DNA of 40,579 nt, taken from the NCBI GenBank assembly GCA_016207165.1, contig JACQQD010000006.1, forward strand, positions 1 to 40,579. Direction: 5' to 3'. Within the stretch, counting starts at the first letter, position 1; each line of letters starts with the position of its first letter. Under the pieces are notes generated by a model. It made no database searches. It had not been told where the DNA came from and saw nothing but the letters and a program-made list of their open reading frames with translations. Shown here piece after piece: positions 3,667-34,648 of this stretch. Both the position numbers and the translations under genes were made by a program. The stretch comes from Candidatus Micrarchaeota archaeon. Lineage in GTDB: Archaea; Micrarchaeota; Micrarchaeia; Norongarragalinales; Norongarragalinaceae.

Positions 3667-4293
3667 TTAGGGTTGAACGAATTGTTTCAAGAACCAAATC
3701 AAGTGCTTTCTAGCCATTTCGCCTTTCTGTCGCGCTTTGGCCAGTTGGCTTGGCGTCAACGTGATGTCACGAACGGGTTGCCTTGGAGCAGTTCGGGCCA
3801 AGCCGAGTATTTTGGCCAGAAACTCTCCGAAGCGGTCTCTTCGTTGGAATTCCCAGGTTTTTTTCAGTAATTCTTTTCGGCGCTCTTCGGATGCCACCGG
3901 AAACCAGTCTTCGCCTTTGTCTTGGACGTGTTGTTGAAGCTGTCGCAGAAGATTGTCGAACTCGTTTTTTTCGGCGCGGCTCAGGGTTTCTGGCTTGTCG
4001 TCGGTCCGCCGCGCCCAGAACTTGTCTTCGTGGACGAGGTGTTTTCCTCGAAAAACGCGGCGGTAGGTGGGCTGGTTTTCATGGAGGGCGCGGAAAACCA
4101 GGTGTTCGGCTCCATCCTCATCCTTGAAGTAGGTTACCGCCACCCCGCGGTGTTCGTCGGGCGCCCAGTGCACCAACGTGCCCAATTCCGGGTGCAGGTG
4201 CTGTAATTCAACAGGAAAAAAGTGGCCTTGGACGGCGGGAAGCGGGTATTGTTCCGTTTGGCGGATTGCCTCAATGATTTTTCTAAAGGGCAT
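3667..4293 (-). CDS. Hypothetical protein
   Basis: 208-aa ORF with natural composition and an AT-rich upstream region; no family recognised. Confidence 0.6.
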   Translation of the reverse strand: MPFRKIIEAIRQTEQYPLPAVQGHFFPVELQHLHPELGTLVHWAPDEHRGVAVTYFKDEDGAEHLVFRALHENQPTYRRVFRGKHLVHEDKFWARRTDDKPETLSRAEKNEFDNLLRQLQQHVQDKGEDWFPVASEERRKELLKKTWEFQRRDRFGEFLAKILGLARTAPRQPVRDITLTPSQLAKARQKGEMARKHLIWFLKQFVQP

Positions 4294-4350
4294 GGCGATT
4301 GTTTTTTTCCGCGCACGTAACTTATACTTGTGGGTCTAATTTTTTTCTGT

Positions 4351-4647
4351 ATGAAGGCCTACTTGGTGATTTCAGGCAACGTTCAGGGCGTGGGCTACCG
4401 GTTTTTCGTGAAGTCCAAGGCCGACGAGCTGGGCGTGAACGGGTTTGTGCGGAATCGGAAGGACGGGGCCGTGGACGTTTTTGGGTTGTTTAAGGACGAA
4501 GAGCACTTGCGGTCGTTTCTGAAGGCGATTTTCCGGACGAGTTCCAGCGATTTCGGCTTGCACGTGCGGGGAATCAAGATTCACCGGGAAGACGAATCGG
4601 GTTTCCTGGACTTCGGTGGCTTTGCGGATTTCCAACTCCGTTTATGA
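4351..4647 (+). CDS. acyP: Acylphosphatase
   Basis: ISGNVQGVGYR and GFVRNRKDGAV signatures; ATG at 4351. Confidence 0.93.
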   Translation: MKAYLVISGNVQGVGYRFFVKSKADELGVNGFVRNRKDGAVDVFGLFKDEEHLRSFLKAIFRTSSSDFGLHVRGIKIHREDESGFLDFGGFADFQLRL

Positions 4648-4696
4648 ATCCTTTAAGTAGGTTCGATTCGTTGGGTGTTTTGAGGGTGGTTGGTTT

Positions 4697-5038
4697 ATGA
4701 AGAAATCCAAGTCCGGTAAGATGGCGGAAGCCATGGCGTGCGAAGATTGCCAGCGTGATCCCTGTTGTTGTGAGAACGAATGCGAGTGCGGGCATGGTGG
4801 AGAGTCGTGTTGTGATTCTTGTGGGACGTGCGGTTCGGGTTGCGGGCCCATGCATGCGGGATGGGGTTTTTGGGAGTTCAAACTCAAGTTTTTGGCGGTT
4901 GGGTTGATTGGGTTGGGTGTATTGTGGTATTTGCGGAATGCGGGCGTGATTCCGGGTGACTTGTTTTGGCCTGTTGTGTTCGTTTTGGGCGGCTTGGCGT
5001 TGTTGGCCAAGTCTTACATGATGCGCCGTAGCTGGTGA
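4697..5038 (+). CDS. Small membrane protein with Cys-rich N-terminus and two TM helices
   Basis: CEDC..CCC..CEC..CCDSCGTC..C followed by LIGLGVLWYL..FWPVVFVLGGL (LiaF/DUF5668-like TM pair). Confidence 0.7.
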   Translation: MKKSKSGKMAEAMACEDCQRDPCCCENECECGHGGESCCDSCGTCGSGCGPMHAGWGFWEFKLKFLAVGLIGLGVLWYLRNAGVIPGDLFWPVVFVLGGLALLAKSYMMRRSW

Positions 5039-6060
5039 ATGTTTGCATCGGTTTTCAGGCCCGTGGGCGCGTAGTGCGTCCGCGTGGCCTTGAACTTTTT
5101 CTTTCTTAATTTTTCAATCAGGGCGTCCATTTTGGGCGCCGGTTTTCCTACGTGGTGCACGTCGTAAAAGTACGGCGGACGGCCTTGCTCGTTTTCCAAG
5201 ACTTCAAGCAGGTGCTTCGTTTTTTCGTCGGGCGCGTTTTGCTTCATGGCGTTTAGGATGCGGACGTCGTTGACGTCGGAGACCCAAAGCGGGCCGGCGA
5301 CTTGGACGTTTTTGCATTTCAGGGGTTTCGTGTCGCGGGCCAAGGTTTCGGGGTCGAAATGGACGTGGCCGATGTGTGTGAGGCTTTCATCGGCTTTCTG
5401 CGCGCTTTTTTCGACCAACACCATGATTTTGGCGAAGTGGTCTTGGTAGAACGAAAAAAGCGGCGTGATGCCGGCGTCCTGCATGGCGGCTTGACGCGCG
5501 ACAAACCCCAGGATGATACGCAGTGCCAATTCGTGGGCAAAGTCCACGTAAAGCGGCGCCGCGTCGTACCGGCGTTGGGCCGGCTGGTTTTTTCTCCCGC
5601 ACAGCGTCGCCAAGTCGGTGGCCGTCACGCTTAGAATCGCTTTTTTGTGGCACGCGCGCAACGCGTTTTGGATGAAGGGGGCCGGAGTTCCAAAGGGATC
5701 CACTTCCACGACGTCAAAGGGCTTGGTCTGCGTGCAGAAGTGGTTGAATTCGTCGCACGCAAATTCGGCGTTCTGGACATGGTTTTGTTCCGCGTTTTTT
5801 CGGGCCAGTTCCAACGCCCTGGGATTGGCGTCCAAAAACGTGATGGCGTCCAACGGGTTTTCCAGTGCGTAGCGGATGCCGCGGATGCCAGTGGCGCAGA
5901 AACCGTCCAGAACGTGCCTTGATTTCAGGTGCGGCAGGGCCGCGCCCAAGGCGAGACTGGAGAGCGTCCGGTTGAACGCCATGCGAGGGTTGTAGAACAC
6001 AGATTCGTCGTCGGGGACGAGAATTTTCGCTCCGGCTTCCCGGATTTCCTTAAGTTTCAT
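5014..6060 (-). CDS. trm1: tRNA (guanine26-N2)-dimethyltransferase
   Basis: VFYNPRMAFNR, LDGFCATGIRGIRY, DPFGTP, VTATD, GPLW, RTHYAPTGLKTDA. Confidence 0.96.
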   Translation of the reverse strand: MKLKEIREAGAKILVPDDESVFYNPRMAFNRTLSSLALGAALPHLKSRHVLDGFCATGIRGIRYALENPLDAITFLDANPRALELARKNAEQNHVQNAEFACDEFNHFCTQTKPFDVVEVDPFGTPAPFIQNALRACHKKAILSVTATDLATLCGRKNQPAQRRYDAAPLYVDFAHELALRIILGFVARQAAMQDAGITPLFSFYQDHFAKIMVLVEKSAQKADESLTHIGHVHFDPETLARDTKPLKCKNVQVAGPLWVSDVNDVRILNAMKQNAPDEKTKHLLEVLENEQGRPPYFYDVHHVGKPAPKMDALIEKLRKKKFKATRTHYAPTGLKTDANIHQLRRIM

Positions 6061-27611: not shown

Positions 27612-27941
27612 ATGAAAAAGCGTTGGTGGGCCTGGTTTCTCGTCTGGACGATTCCCTTTGCCGCGTTAACGCTTTTCTTCGCACCGCTTCTGTTTTGGGG
27701 TCTGACCGCGTTTTTCGCTCTCTACGCCGTTCTGGCGTGGGAGCGGGCCGGCTTCACGTCGGACTTCCGGAAATTCAAGGAGCAACTCAAGGACCCCCAG
27801 CCCCTGGCGGAATTGGCTCTGATGGGTGTCGTGGTCCTTCTGTTCTTGTTGTTGGCCGTGGGCTCGCCCTCCGAATCTCTCCTGGTTTTAGTCGCCTTGG
27901 TGCCCGTCCTGGCCGCCATGGCGTTTCCCGCCAAACAATAA
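27612..27941 (+). CDS. Small multi-TM hypothetical protein
   Basis: About four hydrophobic segments, host codon usage, directly after PAC2. Confidence 0.65.
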   Translation: MKKRWWAWFLVWTIPFAALTLFFAPLLFWGLTAFFALYAVLAWERAGFTSDFRKFKEQLKDPQPLAELALMGVVVLLFLLLAVGSPSESLLVLVALVPVLAAMAFPAKQ

Positions 27942-27967
27942 AGAATCCGCTTCGTCACCTCTTTTTT

Positions 27968-28053
27968 GCAGGGGTGACAGAGCTTGGCCAAACGTGCAGG
28001 GCTTAGGACCCTGTCCCTTTGTGGGTTCGTGGGTTCAAATCCCACCCCCTGCA
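27968..28053 (+). tRNA. tRNA-Leu(TAG), intronless, CCA not encoded
   Basis: Acceptor GCAGGGG/CCCCTGC+A; anticodon arm CAGGG-CTTAGGA-CCCTG; long variable arm; GGTTCAAATCC T-loop. Confidence 0.95.
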
Positions 28054-28054
28054 T
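28043..28054 (+). repeat. attL core: CACCCCCTGCAT (tRNA 3' end)
   Basis: Identical 12-mer at 33731-33742. Confidence 0.85.
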
Positions 28055-28058
28055 TCTT

Positions 28059-28078
28059 ACTTAAGCTGAAAGCACGAA
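28059..28078. repeat. Left terminal inverted repeat (pairs with 33702-33721)
   Basis: ACTTAAGCTGAAAGCACGAA versus reverse complement of 33702-33721 ACTTAATCTGAAAGCACGGA: 18/20. Confidence 0.85.
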
Positions 28079-28168
28079 CTTGACTGGCTCGTTCTCACAA
28101 GTATATCACTAGTTTTGGGCAATTTATAGACTGCTCTCTCTGCCTTTTTGCTACTTTATTTTTACGCC

Positions 28169-28531
28169 GTAGTGTTCGTGTTGTGTGTGCGGATGCGACA
28201 TCAGTCTGGTTCCATTCATAGCCTTTAGTTATGAATTTAGAATATATGATTTAACATAATTGTTATGTGTATATATTTCTATTATATAATTTCTTTTAAT
28301 TTTTATCATTTTTAACATCTACATATGTAATGTATTCATAATATAAAATCTATTTCTTTTGTTTTTTTTGTTCACTTAGCTTAGTTCTAGTCTTCTCATC
28401 ATTCATATTAATTAACTTTCATTTATTCTGTTGCTTTATGGGTATTTTGTACTGTTTTTTGATTTTTTGCGTTTTTCGTTTCTTTGTAGTGTTCGTGTCG
28501 TGTGTGCGGATGCGATGTCAGTCCGGTGCCA
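28169..28531 (+). repeat. 46-bp direct repeat (28169-28214, 28486-28531) flanking a very AT-rich spacer
   Basis: 41/46 identical, 317-bp offset, weaker similarity extending on both sides. Confidence 0.85.
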
Positions 28532-28622
28532 GTCTAACTTTTTTATTATGAGTTTTACTAGTGATGCAAACCTTTAAATTCAATTGGCGGTACTTTATTC
28601 TTCTTCAATTTGGGGTGGGCAT

Positions 28623-29162
28623 ATGTCCGATTTGCTAAAAATGAAAAAAATTGCTCAGGAAATTCAACAAGCCGTATCTGAATTGGATGAGCCTTACCGG
28701 GTAATCGCTTTCCGGGTTTTTCTGGAAAACGTGACTCGCCAACCTGAAGCTCAAACGCGAGTGAAGCCCAATTCCATAAACGATGACCGTCCGGTCAAGT
28801 TAACTCCCGAAAATAATGAGTCGGTTGATGATATTTCTGCCCGAATTAATCGAACGGCTCACCCTGAAATCTCACTTTTGAAAACTGCAAAAGACCGCGC
28901 ACTGTTTATCCTAAAGATTGTTAAGGATGAAGCGGGACGTGACGGTCTTCAGCCGAGTCAGATTACTCAAGTCCTTGACCAAGTCTTTCGTTTGAAGGTC
29001 ACGCAGTATGCTATCAGCATGGCTTTGGGCACTGAGACTAAGTTCGTTGACAGAAAGCCGGTTTCGGGAGTCGGCGGTAAAGCATATGTATACCGAATTA
29101 TGGCGCCAGGCGAAGAGTACTTGGAAAAAATTATCAAAGAGGCGAACCAAAATGGACCATGA
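28623..29162 (+). CDS. Hypothetical protein, N-terminal helical hairpin plus probable C-terminal winged helix
   Basis: GLQPSQITQVL..ISMAL..FVDR..AYVYRIMAPGEEYL wHTH pattern; TTTAAA box and GGGGTGG RBS upstream. Confidence 0.7.
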   Translation: MSDLLKMKKIAQEIQQAVSELDEPYRVIAFRVFLENVTRQPEAQTRVKPNSINDDRPVKLTPENNESVDDISARINRTAHPEISLLKTAKDRALFILKIVKDEAGRDGLQPSQITQVLDQVFRLKVTQYAISMALGTETKFVDRKPVSGVGGKAYVYRIMAPGEEYLEKIIKEANQNGP

Positions 29163-29607
29163 ACACTTGCGATTAGCCATCAATACGGCGAAGGAAGCAG
29201 CTAGTCATGAGGCGGAGTACGGACGTGAGGTATTTACTGCGGTCTTAACCTCGGAACTGGTTTTGGCTGGTGGTAGTGCACCTACGGTCCGGCCTATCCT
29301 TACAAAATCTCTATCTCTTGGTGAATTGCTTAATTCCAAGTCGCCAAAAAATGACGTCCAAAAAACTTTGGTTTTCGGCTATTACTTGGAAGCCGTAAAA
29401 AAGCTGAAAGAGTTTTCATCTAAAGATATCTATGCCTGCTATCGTGAAGCGAAAGAACGAGTGCCCCCTAACATCAGTGACAAAATTAAGATGAATGTTC
29501 AACGCGCGTGGATGTCCACTACTGGCAAAGATGGCATCAGTCTCACCTACTCACTAACCTCCACCGGTGTTAGTGCAGTTGAACAAGGGTTCGTCTCAGA
29601 GGATTGA
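29152..29607 (+). CDS. Hypothetical winged-helix protein
   Basis: KTLVFGYYLE..FSSKDI..CY..P.NISD..W...YSLTSTGVSAVE; overlaps the upstream gene. Confidence 0.72.
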   Translation: MDHEHLRLAINTAKEAASHEAEYGREVFTAVLTSELVLAGGSAPTVRPILTKSLSLGELLNSKSPKNDVQKTLVFGYYLEAVKKLKEFSSKDIYACYREAKERVPPNISDKIKMNVQRAWMSTTGKDGISLTYSLTSTGVSAVEQGFVSED

Positions 29608-29614
29608 CTTTTCG

Positions 29615-30304
29615 ATGTTTGATTCACTGAAAAAATATCAACGGATTCTACTCGTTCTTTACGAGGAAAATAAGAAGGGCAACCCTAAGCTTTCTTCCGA
29701 ACAGATTTCAGCACTCAGCCTTAGTAAGTATGATTTGCCGTTTACTCCAAAGGAAATTGCCAACACTTTGAATCCATTGTCTGGGAAAAAGGTGGTTCGG
29801 ACCGGCCAGCCGGTTACCTATCAAATCATCAGACCAGGCATTCTTGAAATTGAGAGTTTGCAGAATATTCCGGCCATTCTGCCTAATTCCGATTCCAAGC
29901 TTTCCCCCGAAGTTTTGGCCGCCCTTGGAAATTCATTTTCGGGGGAAGTGCGAGAACTCAGTTTCGCAATGAAAAATCAATGCCCGATTTCTGCTTCTGT
30001 TTTGCTCCGGAGAATTTTAGAAAAGCTGCTAATCCGTGTTTTTCTAAAACACGTCCAAAAGACGGAATTAGTTAGTGCAAACGGCGATTACCGTAGCTTG
30101 TCTTTTCTTCTTGACTTGGCTCAAAGTACCAAAATTTACGGTGGCGTGATTTTAAACACCCGAAATGCCTCCAACCTTGATAAAATGAAATTCCTTGGTG
30201 ATACCGCCGCTCATAATCCGTCGATTACTCCTTCGATTGTCGATGTTCAAACCCATTTGGCATACTATTCTGTTGCTGTAACCGAAATTGCTCAGCATCA
30301 GTAA
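29615..30304 (+). CDS. wHTH plus DUF4145-like HEPN domain protein
   Basis: N-terminal wHTH ending YQIIRPGI; SVLLRRILE and KFLGDTAAH (R/KxxG[ND]xxAH pattern). Confidence 0.72.
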   Translation: MFDSLKKYQRILLVLYEENKKGNPKLSSEQISALSLSKYDLPFTPKEIANTLNPLSGKKVVRTGQPVTYQIIRPGILEIESLQNIPAILPNSDSKLSPEVLAALGNSFSGEVRELSFAMKNQCPISASVLLRRILEKLLIRVFLKHVQKTELVSANGDYRSLSFLLDLAQSTKIYGGVILNTRNASNLDKMKFLGDTAAHNPSITPSIVDVQTHLAYYSVAVTEIAQHQ

Positions 30305-30660
30305 CCCAATAACTTGCGTTTGCGGATTTTCCACGGGTTGAAAACGAGCGCAACCCGTGGAGCAATATATAAAGAAAACCCGCGGGTTTACCGCGGAGAA
30401 CGCCTCTAAACCTATTTCAAACCCCCGAATTTGGCGTTTTCGGTTCCTACGAATTTGTCTATATTGCTTTGTCTATTCCTTCTTTTTCAGGAATCTTTTG
30501 TGTCTTCGCTCGTAACCCGACGCGAAAACTTTTCCGACCACTCGATTCTATTCCATATATAGTTCGTGACGCGTAACCCGCTCAAAAAACGCCTCCAACT
30601 CAGCCTTGGGACGCCTAAAACTGGGTTTTTGTTTGCTACGAATATTGGTATGGTTTAAGG

Positions 30661-31422
30661 TTAGCGTCTGGTGTCTGCCTTTCGAGGATAGACGACTCCA
30701 ACAATCATGTACGTGTTGAACCGGTAGTGTGAGCCCATGATGAAGTAGACTGGCCCATTTTCTGTGACTTTTTTGAGCATTTTTTCCCGGACTTTTTGGT
30801 GGACTTCATTTTCGTCCCGATATTTTCCAGCTTTGCGATAGTCTTCGCAGTTGCTGTACAGTTCACCGACTTCCCAATCTTCGCATAGGCACTCGTGGAC
30901 CCGGCCGTCCTGGTCGTCTTTGAAAATGTACCGATACTTGTATTTTGGTATGTCCAATTGGATAGCTTTTTGACCGGTCAAAGTTGTTTGAGCACTTTTT
31001 GTGACCAGCGCTTCATAGTGCTGATTTGTAGTCGGCGCAAAATCCAAAATAGTCGGTTTTACTACGCCAATCGAGGCGTTCTTAGGTGTTTCAGCCTCTA
31101 ACTCTTCAATACTCGTGATGCGCGGAAAAAGGAGCGCTTCGATTTCATTGAAAGACGCTTCGCCTAACGGCTTGATGGTGGCTGGTTTGATTTTGCGGCT
31201 TTCGGGTCGGTGGTCGGATGGTTTTTCGCTTTCCAGTTCGTATTCAATCCACATTTTCTTCTTGAAATTTAATGGACTGGAGCCCCAGAAAATACTCCAA
31301 GGTATAGGGTATACTCTGCGCCACTCGCCTTTGTCGGTAATGCCTGCCACGCAGATTAGGTGTTCGTACTTTTGACTGATTTCTGGCGTGGCTTTGGCCA
31401 GTACGAGTAACTTTTCTCTCAT
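30661..31422 (-). CDS. Uncharacterised DUF488-associated protein (probably dual-OB-like)
   Basis: LAKATP.IS.KY..ICVAGI..GEWRRVYPIP, FKKKMWIE, DHRPES, CEDWE; ATGA-coupled to the DUF488 gene. Confidence 0.7.
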   Translation of the reverse strand: MREKLLVLAKATPEISQKYEHLICVAGITDKGEWRRVYPIPWSIFWGSSPLNFKKKMWIEYELESEKPSDHRPESRKIKPATIKPLGEASFNEIEALLFPRITSIEELEAETPKNASIGVVKPTILDFAPTTNQHYEALVTKSAQTTLTGQKAIQLDIPKYKYRYIFKDDQDGRVHECLCEDWEVGELYSNCEDYRKAGKYRDENEVHQKVREKMLKKVTENGPVYFIMGSHYRFNTYMIVGVVYPRKADTRR

Positions 31423-32264
31423 AGGTGAGTCACTTTTTTCCCAGTTATTTTTTCAAGGCTTTCACTTAACGTGCCGCGGTGGCAGGAATTTACGTGCTTT
31501 TCAAAACAAAGCAGGACCACTCTTTTTTTTTCACTAACTTTTGCAATATCTTGAATGGCGTTCATTTCGCCTGGCAGAATCGTATTTCCGTAGAATTGGA
31601 ACAACTTTTTGTAATCTTCCGGCGTGTTCAACTCTTTACGATATTTTCCTTCGATGCCCAGTTCGGGTTTATGCCAGTATTCGATGTCGACGTTCTTGAG
31701 TGTGTGTGCCAGTCGGGTCCCAATGAAAGCGAAATTCATGCTGAACGCGTTGTCACGTACGTCAATTAGCAAGTCGATTTGGTTCTGAATCAACGCGTCA
31801 AGGAATGAATCAATGTCATTTCCTTCGTATCCTATTGAAAACATCCCAGGTTCAGGTTGGTGTTGGAGGTGAGCTGTCAGCACGCTTTTGACTGCATATT
31901 CGGGATACTTACTATATGTGTAATCAATAATGTCATCTTGATTTTTGAATCGGTTAGCGATGCCTTCGATGGCTTCCCTTTCGCCTGAAGAAATATTTTT
32001 GGCCAATTCTTGGCCCTTTTGGCTCAATTCACTATTTTCTCGAATCAGACCTAAGCTTTGCAATTCGGTCAAGTCGGAGTAAATATTGTTTGAAAATGGT
32101 CCGAACTTATGCGGGTAAAATGAGTAAAATCGGATTTTTTGACCTATTTCGGTTTCTTTTCCAATAATGAATAGGAGTTTGACTAGAACCGTCTTCGTGA
32201 CCTTTTTTCCCTGTTTTTGGAGGGTGTAAACCAAGTGCAATAGTGTCTTTTGGCGTTTGCGCAT
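31419..32264 (-). CDS. SocA/Panacea-like wHTH fused to DUF488 domain
   Basis: KTVLVKLLF..YSFYPHKFGPFS..IYSDL..L; then FSIGYEG..LIDVR..Y.H.PELG..LLCFE..CHR. Confidence 0.85.
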   Translation of the reverse strand: MRKRQKTLLHLVYTLQKQGKKVTKTVLVKLLFIIGKETEIGQKIRFYSFYPHKFGPFSNNIYSDLTELQSLGLIRENSELSQKGQELAKNISSGEREAIEGIANRFKNQDDIIDYTYSKYPEYAVKSVLTAHLQHQPEPGMFSIGYEGNDIDSFLDALIQNQIDLLIDVRDNAFSMNFAFIGTRLAHTLKNVDIEYWHKPELGIEGKYRKELNTPEDYKKLFQFYGNTILPGEMNAIQDIAKVSEKKRVVLLCFEKHVNSCHRGTLSESLEKITGKKVTHL

Positions 32265-32371
32265 GGATGTTTCACATGAAAACGGCATTTAAACGTTCTT
32301 GGACCTCTTGGCCGGTGGCTTTAATCGAGCGAATCATCTCTCGTTAGAACTTTTTGAGCCCGGATTACGGG

Positions 32372-32414
32372 AAGTTAACTAAACAGTTAACTTGAGTTAA
32401 GTAATTACTTAACT
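32372..32414. promoter_or_regulatory. Two adjacent palindromes built on AGTTAA
   Basis: AAGTTAACT-aaac-AGTTAACTT (32372-32393) and perfect 20-bp AGTTAAGTAATTACTTAACT (32395-32414). Confidence 0.6.
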
Positions 32415-33628
32415 TCAAATCCTTCAAAATTTTTCAATAAACCCGTTGCCATCGCTTTTTCCGCTAAGTATTCTTTGAACTCAGGATTCGCCAATAGTTG
32501 GCGCATTAAATCATCTTCCATCTGTCGGGGTTGGCCCACAGTCGCGGCTGTGGCTTCATCGAGCGGTGTGCCACATCGGTGGCAGAACTTGGACGCCGGT
32601 GAGTTGGTTTCTTTGCAGCGGAGGCATGACTTGAGTTGGATGGCGCCTTCTTTGGTTTCATCGTTTTTGTCTTCCATGTGGTAGAGTTTGAGCAGGCTTT
32701 GGTCAACGTCCCGTCCGCTTAAATGGACGTAGGTGGCGGCCATGTCTGAGCACTGAGTCCAACCAAAGTATTCTTTCATTTGCGCTTCCGTGAGCTTGGA
32801 GGCAAGAAAGGTGGCGCGGCTGTGACGGAACAAGTGCGGGTACACTTTCTTGGTGATTCCCGCTTCTTTGGCGAGCTTTTTCAGCATCACGTAGATGGAT
32901 TGGCACTCTGCGGGAGATTCTTTTTGGTAGGCGTTGTTGGAACGGGGTGGCCATAGCCATGATTCGGTTTCATTGTTGGGATGAATTTCCAGCCATTTGC
33001 CGAGTTCGGATACGGATTGAATGATTCGGACGCGTCGGTCTCCGGTTTTACCGGTGACACGCAAGACGGCACCGTGTTGGTCGAATTGGACATTCTTGAT
33101 TTTTAGGGAAAGCATTTCGCCGATTCTACAACCGGATTCGTAAAGTACCAAAACCAGTGCTTTGTCGCGGGGGTGATGAGCGGATTGAGCCATTCTATAG
33201 ACTTCGGCTTCGGTCAGTAGTTCTTCGGGTAGCTTTTTGGCGGTGTTTTTGAGTTTGGGTCTGAGCCACTTGGTTTCGGGCGGGTTTTCCTCGTCGTTGC
33301 CTTTCAGCCACCTGTAAAACAGCTTCAGGACGACTTTGAAGTCATATTTGCTCCATTCCGCATAGGGTCGCCGCTCGATTTCGCCGACCAAGGCAATCAT
33401 GTCTTGTTTGGAAGCTTCGTCAAAGCCTTTTCCAAGCCATTTGGCCAAGTATCGTAGGCAGTAAATGACTTTGACGATGCGAAAACCGCTCGTTCCTTGC
33501 GCCAGACGGTTTTCTGTGAAACCCACAATCAATTTCCGGTTGGCGGGCGAAACCGACGAGTCTTTTTCCAATCTTCCTAGGGCTAATTCCAATTTCTGCT
33601 GGCTTTTGTGTATTGGGCTTCTGCTCAT
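32405..33628 (-). CDS. Tyrosine recombinase/integrase with C-terminal Zn ribbon
   Basis: YESGCRIGE, GKTG, HLFRHSRAT, FGW..MAATYVHL, CLRC..N..FCHRCG; GGAGG RBS before ATG 33628. Confidence 0.95.
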   Translation of the reverse strand: MSRSPIHKSQQKLELALGRLEKDSSVSPANRKLIVGFTENRLAQGTSGFRIVKVIYCLRYLAKWLGKGFDEASKQDMIALVGEIERRPYAEWSKYDFKVVLKLFYRWLKGNDEENPPETKWLRPKLKNTAKKLPEELLTEAEVYRMAQSAHHPRDKALVLVLYESGCRIGEMLSLKIKNVQFDQHGAVLRVTGKTGDRRVRIIQSVSELGKWLEIHPNNETESWLWPPRSNNAYQKESPAECQSIYVMLKKLAKEAGITKKVYPHLFRHSRATFLASKLTEAQMKEYFGWTQCSDMAATYVHLSGRDVDQSLLKLYHMEDKNDETKEGAIQLKSCLRCKETNSPASKFCHRCGTPLDEATAATVGQPRQMEDDLMRQLLANPEFKEYLAEKAMATGLLKNFEGFEVK

Positions 33629-33701
33629 CGGTATTTCCTCCGTGAGCACGAGACCTCTTATTTTTTGATGCAAAATTTGGTACGATTGTACCAAAATCTC
33701 A

Positions 33702-33721
33702 TCCGTGCTTTCAGATTAAGT
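33702..33721. repeat. Right terminal inverted repeat
   Basis: TCCGTGCTTTCAGATTAAGT, inverted 18/20 match to 28059-28078. Confidence 0.85.
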
Positions 33722-33730
33722 CTGGGCTTA

Positions 33731-33742
33731 CACCCCCTGCAT
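33731..33742 (+). repeat. attR core: duplicate of tRNA-Leu 3' end
   Basis: CACCCCCTGCAT identical to 28043-28054; about 100 bp upstream of the integrase start. Confidence 0.85.
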
Positions 33743-33847
33743 CCGTCTTTTTGTTATAGTCACAAAACTTTTTATTCGACGTGCGCCTGGGACTATTGTA
33801 ACCACCTTGTTTTTCAACGAAAACGTGCTTCTGGAATCGATGTGATT

Positions 33848-34648
33848 ATGGCGTTGTCTGCGTCGGCCAGAAAACCCGTGGTTTTGGCAAAATACATCGA
33901 CTGGAAGTTTACCGAAGGCGAGGAACGATTTCGAGGCGTGACAGGGGAGCACGCCGTCAACCTTGCGAATAAACGGGGCGTGGTGTTGGCTTCGAACAAG
34001 GAATTGGACCGACGGCTGGTCTTGACGCGGGAATGGGAGGATGAACAATACATTTACCCGGCGTGGTCCGGCACCTTGGTGGTCACCGCGCCGTTTGGCG
34101 TCTCGTTTGGCGACGCCGTGAACAAGGCCAATGAGTTGTCCCGCAAGGAGGACTCTGGCATCACGTATGCGTTCAAGGTGCCGGAAAAATATTTGGGTGC
34201 GGTTAACGCCGCTTTGGTCGTGGAACACGGTTTTGACGCCCGTGGCGAGCCCGTGTTTGAGTTTCGCAACGAAGGGCGTAACGGGCGTTTGGTTCATGTT
34301 CACGACGAGCGTAGAATCCACCTAGTCAAAAACGTTCCCCACGAACGTGGGTGGTACGTGCCGGACCCCTGGTTCGGCCTTCCCGTGGGCAAGTTGGTTG
34401 AGCCGTGGCCTGACCGCCCCCGGCACGTGGGTGAGCTGGCGCCGTGGGGTCGCGGTCTCCGGCGCGTTTTTGGCTTTGGCAACTGGTTTTCGTTGATTGT
34501 TCGCGGCTGGGGTCAACTGGATTACGGCTACGAAGAGAATGTTGACCCCCTCATCACGGGCGGTGATATGTCGTCGGATCGTTACGGCGCCCTTGGTTTT
34601 TCGCCGGTTTCAAGAAAGCCGTTGAGGCGTCATAAACGGAATCCGTGA
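33848..34648 (+). CDS. Hypothetical protein resembling DPANN DGR-target (CLec-like) proteins
   Basis: YPAWSGTL, P..GWY.PD..GLPVG, C-terminal LIVRG..Y....SDRYGAL; the family resemblance is recalled, not searched. Confidence 0.6.
   Translation: MALSASARKPVVLAKYIDWKFTEGEERFRGVTGEHAVNLANKRGVVLASNKELDRRLVLTREWEDEQYIYPAWSGTLVVTAPFGVSFGDAVNKANELSRKEDSGITYAFKVPEKYLGAVNAALVVEHGFDARGEPVFEFRNEGRNGRLVHVHDERRIHLVKNVPHERGWYVPDPWFGLPVGKLVEPWPDRPRHVGELAPWGRGLRRVFGFGNWFSLIVRGWGQLDYGYEENVDPLITGGDMSSDRYGALGFSPVSRKPLRRHKRNP

Follow-up and report, generated by a model that had tools for sequence, protein, structure and literature searches.

We describe here three small, tightly packed genes, g1, g2 and g3, in the 40,579-nt contig JACQQD010000006.1 (assembly GCA_016207165.1) of a Candidatus Micrarchaeota archaeon; the entire contig is referred to below as the window. 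The trio forms one operon and is, apparently, a real, conserved and hitherto unnamed variant of the HEPN-based conflict systems. HEPN RNases recur as effectors both in prokaryotic immunity and in toxin-antitoxin (TA) systems, which differ in the ways the effector is restrained and triggered. The explanation that we favor, and to which we would give about an even chance of being correct, is that the trio belongs to a sparse but wide, unnamed, multi-gene HEPN-effector conflict module that combines 2-5 small proteins with a winged-helix-HEPN protein. The purpose of such a module is most likely abortive infection or a TA-like (addiction) function. In its genome, which totals 1.27 Mb in 12 contigs and is 90% complete, the window is contig C5; the nearest relatives of this genome in the collections are metagenome-assembled genomes (MAGs) of Micrarchaeota. 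The genes of the trio and the domains of the third protein are the following:

28623..29162, + strand: g1, ATG at 28623 and TGA at 29160-29162, 179 amino acids (aa)
29152..29607, + strand: g2, ATG at 29152 and TGA at 29605-29607, 151 aa, overlapping g1 by 11 nt
29615..30304, + strand: g3, ATG at 29615, 229 aa, starting after a 7-nt gap behind g2
29615..30304, + strand: domains of g3, winged helix (residues 1-87) and DUF4145-like HEPN (residues 102-229), from the AlphaFold2 model and the structure scan

The initial annotation of this locus, which was made from the sequence alone, proposed a defense system composed of three tandem winged-helix proteins, the last of which carries a HEPN effector. 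The gene packing that it reported (11-nt overlap, 7-nt gap) is confirmed at 28623-30304, and the strings that it quoted are all present, namely, YRIMAPG, YSLTSTG, YQIIRPG, EPYRVIAFRVFL, AEYGREVFTAVL, LLRRILE and KFLGDTAAH. The start codons of the trio are backed by database proteins of equal length (P0001, 229 aa; P0153, 179 aa), and the N-terminus MFDSLK is common to a trio-related protein of another locus (L002). The pattern Y-x-[IL]-x3-G occurs outside the trio 4 times in the approximately 11,300 residues encoded by the other long open reading frames (ORFs) of the window, so that three matches in three adjacent small proteins are unlikely to be due to chance (estimate ~3e-4); in the models of g1 and g3, the motif corresponds to the second strand of the wing and the turn that precedes the next helix. 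That the three ORFs are merely chance frames or decayed, functionless remnants is very hard to credit: nothing speaks for this possibility except the missing Pfam match for g1 and g2, whereas in other lineages, relatives with 35-53% identity have the genes in the same arrangement and of conserved length, confident fold predictions were obtained for g1 and g3, and the identical sequence is found in contigs assembled from four groundwater DNA sequencing runs of one study.

For g3, AlphaFold2 (AF2), given an alignment of 70 relatives, produced a model with a mean predicted local distance difference test score (pLDDT) of 96.3. The HEPN fold, an up-and-down bundle of four helices in which an insert separates helices 2 and 3, was recognized in the C-terminal part of the model. 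When the model was scanned with VIA against 48,161 Protein Data Bank (PDB) representatives, the best matches of residues 102-229 were all HEPN proteins, namely, 2hsb (Z 11.1, 117 residues, root-mean-square deviation (rmsd) 3.1), YutE (1ylm, 9.7), SO_3166 (5yep, 9.4), a HEPN toxin (7ae2, 9.3), TT1696 (1ufb, 9.2), the HEPN domain of sacsin (3o10, 9.2) and AbiA (8oz7, 8.9), although VIA Z values of 9-11, like any below 13, can be reached by unrelated helical bundles. A winged helix of the MarR/PadR/F93 type (Z 9-11) accounts for residues 1-87, with residues 1-86 matching PadR of Bacillus subtilis (5x11) at Z 10.3, in accord with the winged helix that had been claimed for this protein. The assignment of the C-terminal domain to the DUF4145-like HEPN, also made in the initial annotation, stands as well: apart from the similarity to 2hsb, the Pfam model of DUF4145 (PF13643) matches g3 itself with 17.6-17.8 bits (gathering cut-off, 23.1) and matches 21 of the 70 relatives at E<=0.01 (best, 1.4e-7). 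Given that DUF4145 is a member of the HEPN clan (in the available part of the survey by Anantharaman et al., 2013; PMC3710099), these sequence matches provide support for the HEPN domain that is independent of the structure.

The conserved residues of g3 can be summarized as K192-x2-G195-D196-x3-H200, with R132 and E136 contributed by the first helix of the HEPN domain and H200 located at the end of the helix that spans residues 182-200. The alignment of the 70 relatives shows no variation at R132, E136 and H200 and very little at K192, G195, D196 and A199. The string x-x2-G-[DN]-x3-H is present in 120 of the 136 full-length representatives of the family; within these 120, the residue 8 positions before the histidine is K in 114 proteins, R in five and A in one, and at position -4, D (109) predominates over N (11). 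The first-helix R-x3-E is found in 132 of the 136. The classical R-x4-6-H motif is absent from g3, position -5 being Gly and the basic residue lying at -8. The same -8 spacing connects R146 and H154, both of which are required by RAZR, a DUF4145 RNase that has been studied experimentally (according to the available portion of its description, PMC13017515), so that K192 and H200 supply the basic residue and the histidine at the distance characteristic of DUF4145; the remark that Lys takes the position usually held by Arg was right when read with this spacing. A DUF4145-like family, 'c2405', is annotated as 'Conserved H but lacks R' in the accessible text of the 2013 HEPN survey (PMC3710099).

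These patterns bear on the possibility that the three proteins are transcription regulators of a mobile element in which the HEPN-like domain of g3 is non-catalytic and binds a ligand or nucleotide, or mediates dimerization, and in this manner controls DNA binding. Winged helices of the PadR/MarR type are present, or apparent, in all three proteins, the catalytic motif has another residue in place of its Arg, the leader of the operon contains two 70-nt direct repeats (see below), and several HEPN families without catalytic residues are described as binding the substrates of nucleotidyltransferases (in the available part of PMC3710099). The near-invariance of the His, the Gly-Asp pair and the first-helix R-x3-E across bacteria and archaea, however, argues for an active site over a scaffold and makes a non-catalytic regulatory role less likely; K and R interchange at one position, and many of the related loci show no recognizable mobile element. 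On balance, we regard a purely regulatory function of the trio as improbable.

In the AF2 model of the first protein of the trio (pLDDT 77.6), a disordered linker (residues 40-64, pLDDT below 50) connects an N-terminal helical hairpin (residues 2-38) to a PadR-like winged helix, which is followed by a C-terminal helix (residues 84-179 in all, pLDDT about 80-93). Residues 85-179 align with PadR (5x11) at VIA Z 10.1 (87 aligned residues, rmsd 2.5), which bears out the winged helix proposed for g1; the elements that we took to characterize the PadR-like winged helix, that is, a three-helix core, a beta-hairpin wing and a further helix, are found in both g1 and g3. From its sequence, g2 appears to begin with a helical segment and to end in a part that resembles a winged helix. 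No Pfam family (hence not PadR) matches either g1 or g2 at E<=1, nor was any match found in NCBIfam or PADLOC; the profile of g2 produced no sequence match in the PDB, and the profiles of g3, g1 and g2 produced nothing meaningful against PDB sequences. In the ESM Atlas, g1 and g2 fall only within unnamed clusters (scores 0.91-0.95), which are to be taken as leads only. Both families are small: together with their own clusters, the g1 family includes five database proteins (four relatives) plus the L002 copy, and the g2 family three (two relatives).

The initial annotation suggested that g1 and g2 are paralogs that form a heterodimer; for the paralogy, sequence comparison offers no support, the hhalign comparison of the two yielding E 0.09 over the wing portion only. 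The profile of g1 and the winged helix of g3 match weakly (E 0.0046, hhalign probability 7.6%), and neither the comparison of g2 with the g3 family profile (E 0.27) nor those of g2 with a family of small proteins denoted 'famB' (E 0.53; see below) and of the g2 hairpin with the bacterial first-gene family (E 0.19) reached significance. A prediction of the complex of g1, g2 and g3, in which g3 was scored against the other two, returned a score of 0.00 and a mark of 0.32, which speak neither for nor against binding.

The family of g3 has 412 representatives at E<=1e-3 among 1.84 billion sequences, and we analyzed 16 genome loci, each with a full-length g3 relative, from Acidobacteriota, Omnitrophota, Patescibacteria and Micrarchaeota. 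Directly upstream of the HEPN gene, 13 of the 16 loci carry 2-5 small, tightly linked ORFs on the same strand; the exceptions are L015, with two such ORFs further off, L017, with decayed ones, and L014, with none. When clustered by phmmer with single linkage, 29 small ORFs from the loci with g3 relatives form one winged-helix cluster; the entire cluster has 33 members because it also includes four proteins of the g1 family, among them those of two further loci, L024 and L025, and the sole bridge that joins the g1 family to the large cluster is the extra winged helix of L024. The second family of small proteins, 'famB', consists of six ORFs. In 11 of 18 cases, one of the small upstream proteins is matched by the N-terminal domain of the HEPN protein (E 0.007 to 9e-17); in L010, the matching protein belongs to famB. 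This implies that domains have been shuffled between the partners and the effector. The conserved unit is a winged-helix-HEPN protein preceded by several small proteins, most of which carry a PadR-like winged helix behind a short helical N-terminal extension.

The exact gene set is far more restricted. With the same order and similar junctions, g1, g2 and g3 are found in one other lineage of Micrarchaeota, at 46-53% identity (L002, L023 and L029), as well as in a near-identical metagenome fragment (L022). Variants of the arrangement were also detected. In L025, a gene for a 125-aa winged-helix protein is followed by a 257-aa relative of g3 (hhalign E 1.7e-6, probability 90%, again with K-x7-H) and then by a 152-aa relative of g1. 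In a high-GC bacterial metagenome contig (L024, 5980-7651), the relative of g1 carries a second winged helix as a fusion, and the next ORF, of 278 aa, contains an R-N-x5-H string and, toward its C-terminus, a portion that resembles a winged helix; assignment of this ORF to the HEPN fold is an unverified guess, as it compares with the g3 family at E 0.28 and has no Pfam match. The hairpin of g1 matches the first gene of the acidobacterial operons over 40 columns (hhalign E 1.5e-5, probability 80%). The expectation that the gene set recurs is accordingly upheld, for the looser pattern in 13 of the 16 loci and for the exact combination of g1, g2 and g3 in only two lineages, that of the window included; the precise g1 and g2 families are limited to a few lineages.

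The distribution of the g3 family is patchy. Of the 401 sampled genomes of the phylum, six yielded a member, as did one of the 20 other genomes of the same family; in the same genus, neither of the two genomes did. The 72,556 plasmid and 50,697 phage records gave no match, and a single weak match came from viral contigs. More distant relatives of the HEPN domain include P0131, an AbiTii-DUF4145 fusion, and a 566-aa protein from an archaeon of the same class (L032, 1462-3162, - strand) that combines a GHKL ATPase (HATPase_c_3, E 3.1e-24) with a DUF4145 domain scoring 26.1 bits, above the Pfam cut-off. The gene for the latter protein adjoins an ORF that, judged by eye, resembles a fragment of a DNA methyltransferase.

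The genomic context was examined by scanning, with Pfam and PADLOC, the four nearest ORFs of at least 110 aa on each side of the module in the 16 loci (110 proteins). Restriction-modification genes are located nearby in L002, L005 and L010, and a TIR gene in L004; a DndB/DpdB-like gene and PDC-S05 are found in L005, PDC-S18 in L010 and PD-T7-1 in L011. Among the other genes of conflict or mobility are HigB-like Gp49 genes (L003, L005 and L006), large serine recombinases (L010 and L011) and matches to PD-(D/E)XK 'homing endonucleases' (L008, L015 and L017). In L011, a Terriglobia MAG, the very strong PD-T7-1 match (4622-6004, - strand, E 4.9e-168) is located about 560 nt upstream of a four-gene module and the large serine recombinase lies immediately downstream of it. 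All in all, some conflict or mobile gene occurs in about 10 of the 16 loci, which is suggestive; enrichment is not claimed from these counts.

Several lines of evidence weigh against the interpretation of the trio as part of a HEPN-effector conflict module. On the side of the effector, apart from the VIA caveat given above and the DUF4145 score of g3 itself, which stays below the gathering cut-off, Foldseek found no match of the g3 model in the PDB at E<=0.001, and the putative catalytic motif of the family departs from the canonical one, with Lys for Arg in 114 of the 120 motif-bearing proteins and mostly Asp for Asn. On the side of the partners, no relatives of g1 or g2 were detected in the bacterial operons beyond the 40-column hairpin match. 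With respect to the neighborhoods, the scan revealed no conflict or mobile gene in six of the 16 loci (L007, L009, L012, L013, L014 and L016), and the named neighbors in L012, L013 and L016 are housekeeping genes. The defense role put forward in the initial annotation is not borne out by the company that the module keeps: defense systems recognized by PADLOC lie within four genes of it in only four of the 16 related loci. Finally, the listed sequencing runs include no RNA runs, and no expression data were found. As a separate observation, the four-gene module of L013, a Gottesmanbacteria MAG, is inserted (3785-5769) between rpsG (S7) and fusA (EF-G), in the conserved region of the str operon.

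The view that no named system matches this architecture holds for the models of PADLOC-DB 2.0.0, none of which recognizes any component. There were no significant matches for g1, g2 or g3, and when 28 proteins, 26 of them operon proteins from eight related loci, were compared with PADLOC 2.0.0, none scored below E 0.005; a lone sub-threshold match to DrmC (E 0.015) was obtained for g3. Pfam and NCBIfam provide no name for the trio beyond the sub-threshold DUF4145, and a search of the full-text literature, with subscription journals outside its reach, yielded no description of the operon. Within the literature and databases searched, the module is apparently unnamed.

Among the closest known systems is RAZR (PD-T7-4), which likewise combines a small recognition domain at the N-terminus with a C-terminal DUF4145-type HEPN domain; its basic residue, too, is located 8 positions before the His, and the working model is also abortive infection through RNA cleavage. 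In the available portion of its description (PMC13017515), however, RAZR is a single gene with a Cys4 zinc-ribbon/zinc-finger N-terminus and Arg in the motif, whereas the trio has a winged-helix N-terminus, Lys and, counting the related loci, 2-5 partner genes, and there is no match to RAZR/PD-T7-4 in PADLOC. The DUF4145-like HEPN families that Anantharaman et al. (2013) described, 'c2405' among them, belong to the same HEPN clade as g3. For DUF4145, the consulted portion of this survey lists fusions or operons with restriction endonucleases, helicases, sigma-type helix-turn-helix domains, AbiJ-NTD1, DpnII-NTD and others (PMC3710099); a fusion to a winged helix accompanied by tandem winged-helix partners is not among the DUF4145 fusions listed there.

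The type II/VII HEPN-MNT TA systems (SO_3166/SO_3165, 5yep; 7ae2) resemble the trio in the HEPN fold (Z 9.3-9.4), the small operon and the upstream partners, but differ in motif and spacing and in the nucleotidyltransferase partner that the trio lacks; in addition, g3 possesses a winged helix of its own. No MNT gene adjoins g3, given that g1 and g2 have no database match and g1 is a hairpin followed by a winged helix. The similarity to the PadR regulators extends in g1 through the helix after the wing, but g1 adds the N-terminal hairpin and linker, g3 is fused to HEPN, and the Pfam PadR model matches neither. BxaP (PMC10799925) and Ishtar1 (bioRxiv 10.64898/2026.07.06.735840) resemble g3 in their DUF4145/HEPN domain, presumed to be the effector, and in their association with defense loci; in contrast, as far as their descriptions were accessible, both are single proteins with an N-terminal HEPN domain, unrelated C-terminal domains and no winged-helix partners.

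Under the interpretation that we prefer, a HEPN-effector conflict module, the small winged-helix subunits would bind nucleic acid, be it the operator of the module itself or the DNA or RNA of an invader, and would associate through their helical N-termini, holding the HEPN subunit apart or inactive. A trigger, for example, infection or the loss of labile partners, would then allow the HEPN domains to pair and to form a composite site around His200, and the paired domains may cut RNA and arrest the cell, with abortive infection or post-segregational killing as the outcome. HEPN domains generally work as dimers with a composite site (as stated in the available part of PMC13017515), and this makes control by separation followed by trigger-induced assembly plausible. 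A bolder version of this scheme, which we entertain only tentatively, is that the module represents a new type of multi-subunit immune sensor, in which tandem paralogous winged-helix proteins, tethered through their helical N-termini, would build a hetero-oligomeric scaffold that reads foreign DNA or RNA, assembles the winged-helix-HEPN subunits and thereby activates a Lys/His variant of the HEPN RNase; DPANN archaea, the Candidate Phyla Radiation (CPR) and Acidobacteriota would share this sensor, which would have spread on mini-islands.

The same organization can be interpreted as a tripartite TA module which stabilizes the 5.7-kb island described below and has no direct antiviral role. By analogy with the omega-epsilon-zeta sets, autoregulation would fall to g1, the part of the antitoxin to g2 and that of the HEPN toxin to g3; in mechanism this overlaps with the explanation favored here, and the difference lies in purpose. 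The small genes are indeed upstream and translationally coupled through the 11-nt overlap and the 7-nt gap, the module is located on an integrase island bounded by attachment (att) repeats, the related loci adjoin HigB-like TA genes (L003, L005 and L006) and recombinases (L010 and L011), and HEPN proteins are the toxins of HEPN-MNT pairs (in the accessible portion of PMC3710099). A number of small genes that varies from 2 to 5 and their paralogy to the N-terminal domain of the toxin itself would, however, be unusual for antitoxins; neither MNT nor another known antitoxin family was detected in the Pfam and PADLOC scans, and the family is missing from the 72,556 plasmid records, where addiction modules are common. 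We consider this version rather unlikely.

If the trio indeed belongs to a conflict module, this module would add a control scheme that is undescribed in the literature searched, in which paralogous winged-helix subunits precede a winged-helix-HEPN fusion with a Lys-for-Arg variant of the motif. Its carriers include Micrarchaeota and Patescibacteria, which have very small genomes and poorly known defense repertoires, and the compact 5.7-kb island, with a second candidate system on board, is a convenient unit for cloning and testing. Should the Lys variant prove active, the sequence definition used to find HEPN nucleases would widen.

Between 28,000 and 34,000, the G+C content of the window drops from about 0.57-0.60 to 0.38-0.49; this low-GC stretch starts at the 3' end of a tRNA-Leu gene and stops shortly past the gene of a tyrosine integrase, and beyond 34,000 the GC climbs from about 0.45 to 0.585. 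The borders and the cargo of this region outside the trio are the following:

27967..28054, + strand: tRNA-Leu, target of island integration (ARAGORN; Rfam tRNA, 47.4 bits)
28043..28053, + strand: left copy of the 11-nt direct repeat CACCCCCTGCA, the att core, at the 3' end of the tRNA (exact-match search)
28059..28076, + strand: left arm of an 18-nt inverted repeat inside the island end, 94% complementary to 33704-33721
28169..28555, + strand: AT-rich leader (GC 0.38) with two 70-nt direct repeats (repeat search)
28573..28619, + strand: TATA-like TTTAAAT (28573-28579) and purine-rich GGGGTGGG (28612-28619) before g1, both putative, as read from the sequence
30661..31422, - strand: PDC-M19B, candidate defense gene (PADLOC PDLC04507, E 1.5e-45)
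31419..32288, - strand: PDC-M19A, SocA/Panacea-like N-terminus and DUF488 (PADLOC PDLC04505, E 5.1e-74)
32405..33694, - strand: island tyrosine integrase with a C-terminal zinc ribbon (Pfam Phage_integrase, E 7.1e-20)
33704..33741, + strand: right island end, with the inverted-repeat arm (33704-33721) and the right copy of CACCCCCTGCA (33731-33741)

The direct repeat has two exact matches in the window (28043-28053 and 33731-33741), compared to none in 100 shuffles, and we read the segment 28043-33741 as a 5.7-kb integrated element that carries the trio, the convergent PDC-M19 pair and the tyrosine integrase. Genes for replication or structural proteins are not present on the element, which looks like a minimal integrative defense island. 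The integrase matches the NCBIfam model XerA_Arch at E 2e-28, below the cut-off. For PDC-M19A, the Pfam scan detected DUF488 (E 1.9e-20) and, below the cut-off, SocA_Panacea (E 0.0018), whereas PDC-M19B had no Pfam match; the full-text literature search found no paper on PDC-M19. The island is covered in the contigs of the four groundwater runs mentioned above, and no contig of these runs joins across an empty att site, so that excision or absence polymorphism was not seen, a negative that carries no weight by itself.

The two repeats of the leader (28169-28238 and 28486-28555) are 80% identical and 317 nt apart, and could be operator or element sites. A search of 27900-34000 with Rfam detected only the tRNA, folding of the repeats gave no significant structure, the leader DNA showed only short matches (21-29 nt) to 41 related genomes, and the repeats have no long match elsewhere in their own genome. 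A pair comparable to the promoter-like elements in front of g1, TTTAAAT/GGGTGG, is present in L002. On the other side of the operon, a 10-bp inverted repeat (30331-30340 and 30351-30360) is located 3' of g3, and the contigs of two of the groundwater runs (X2 and X3) omit 69 nt between 30357 and 30427, a small intergenic length variant.

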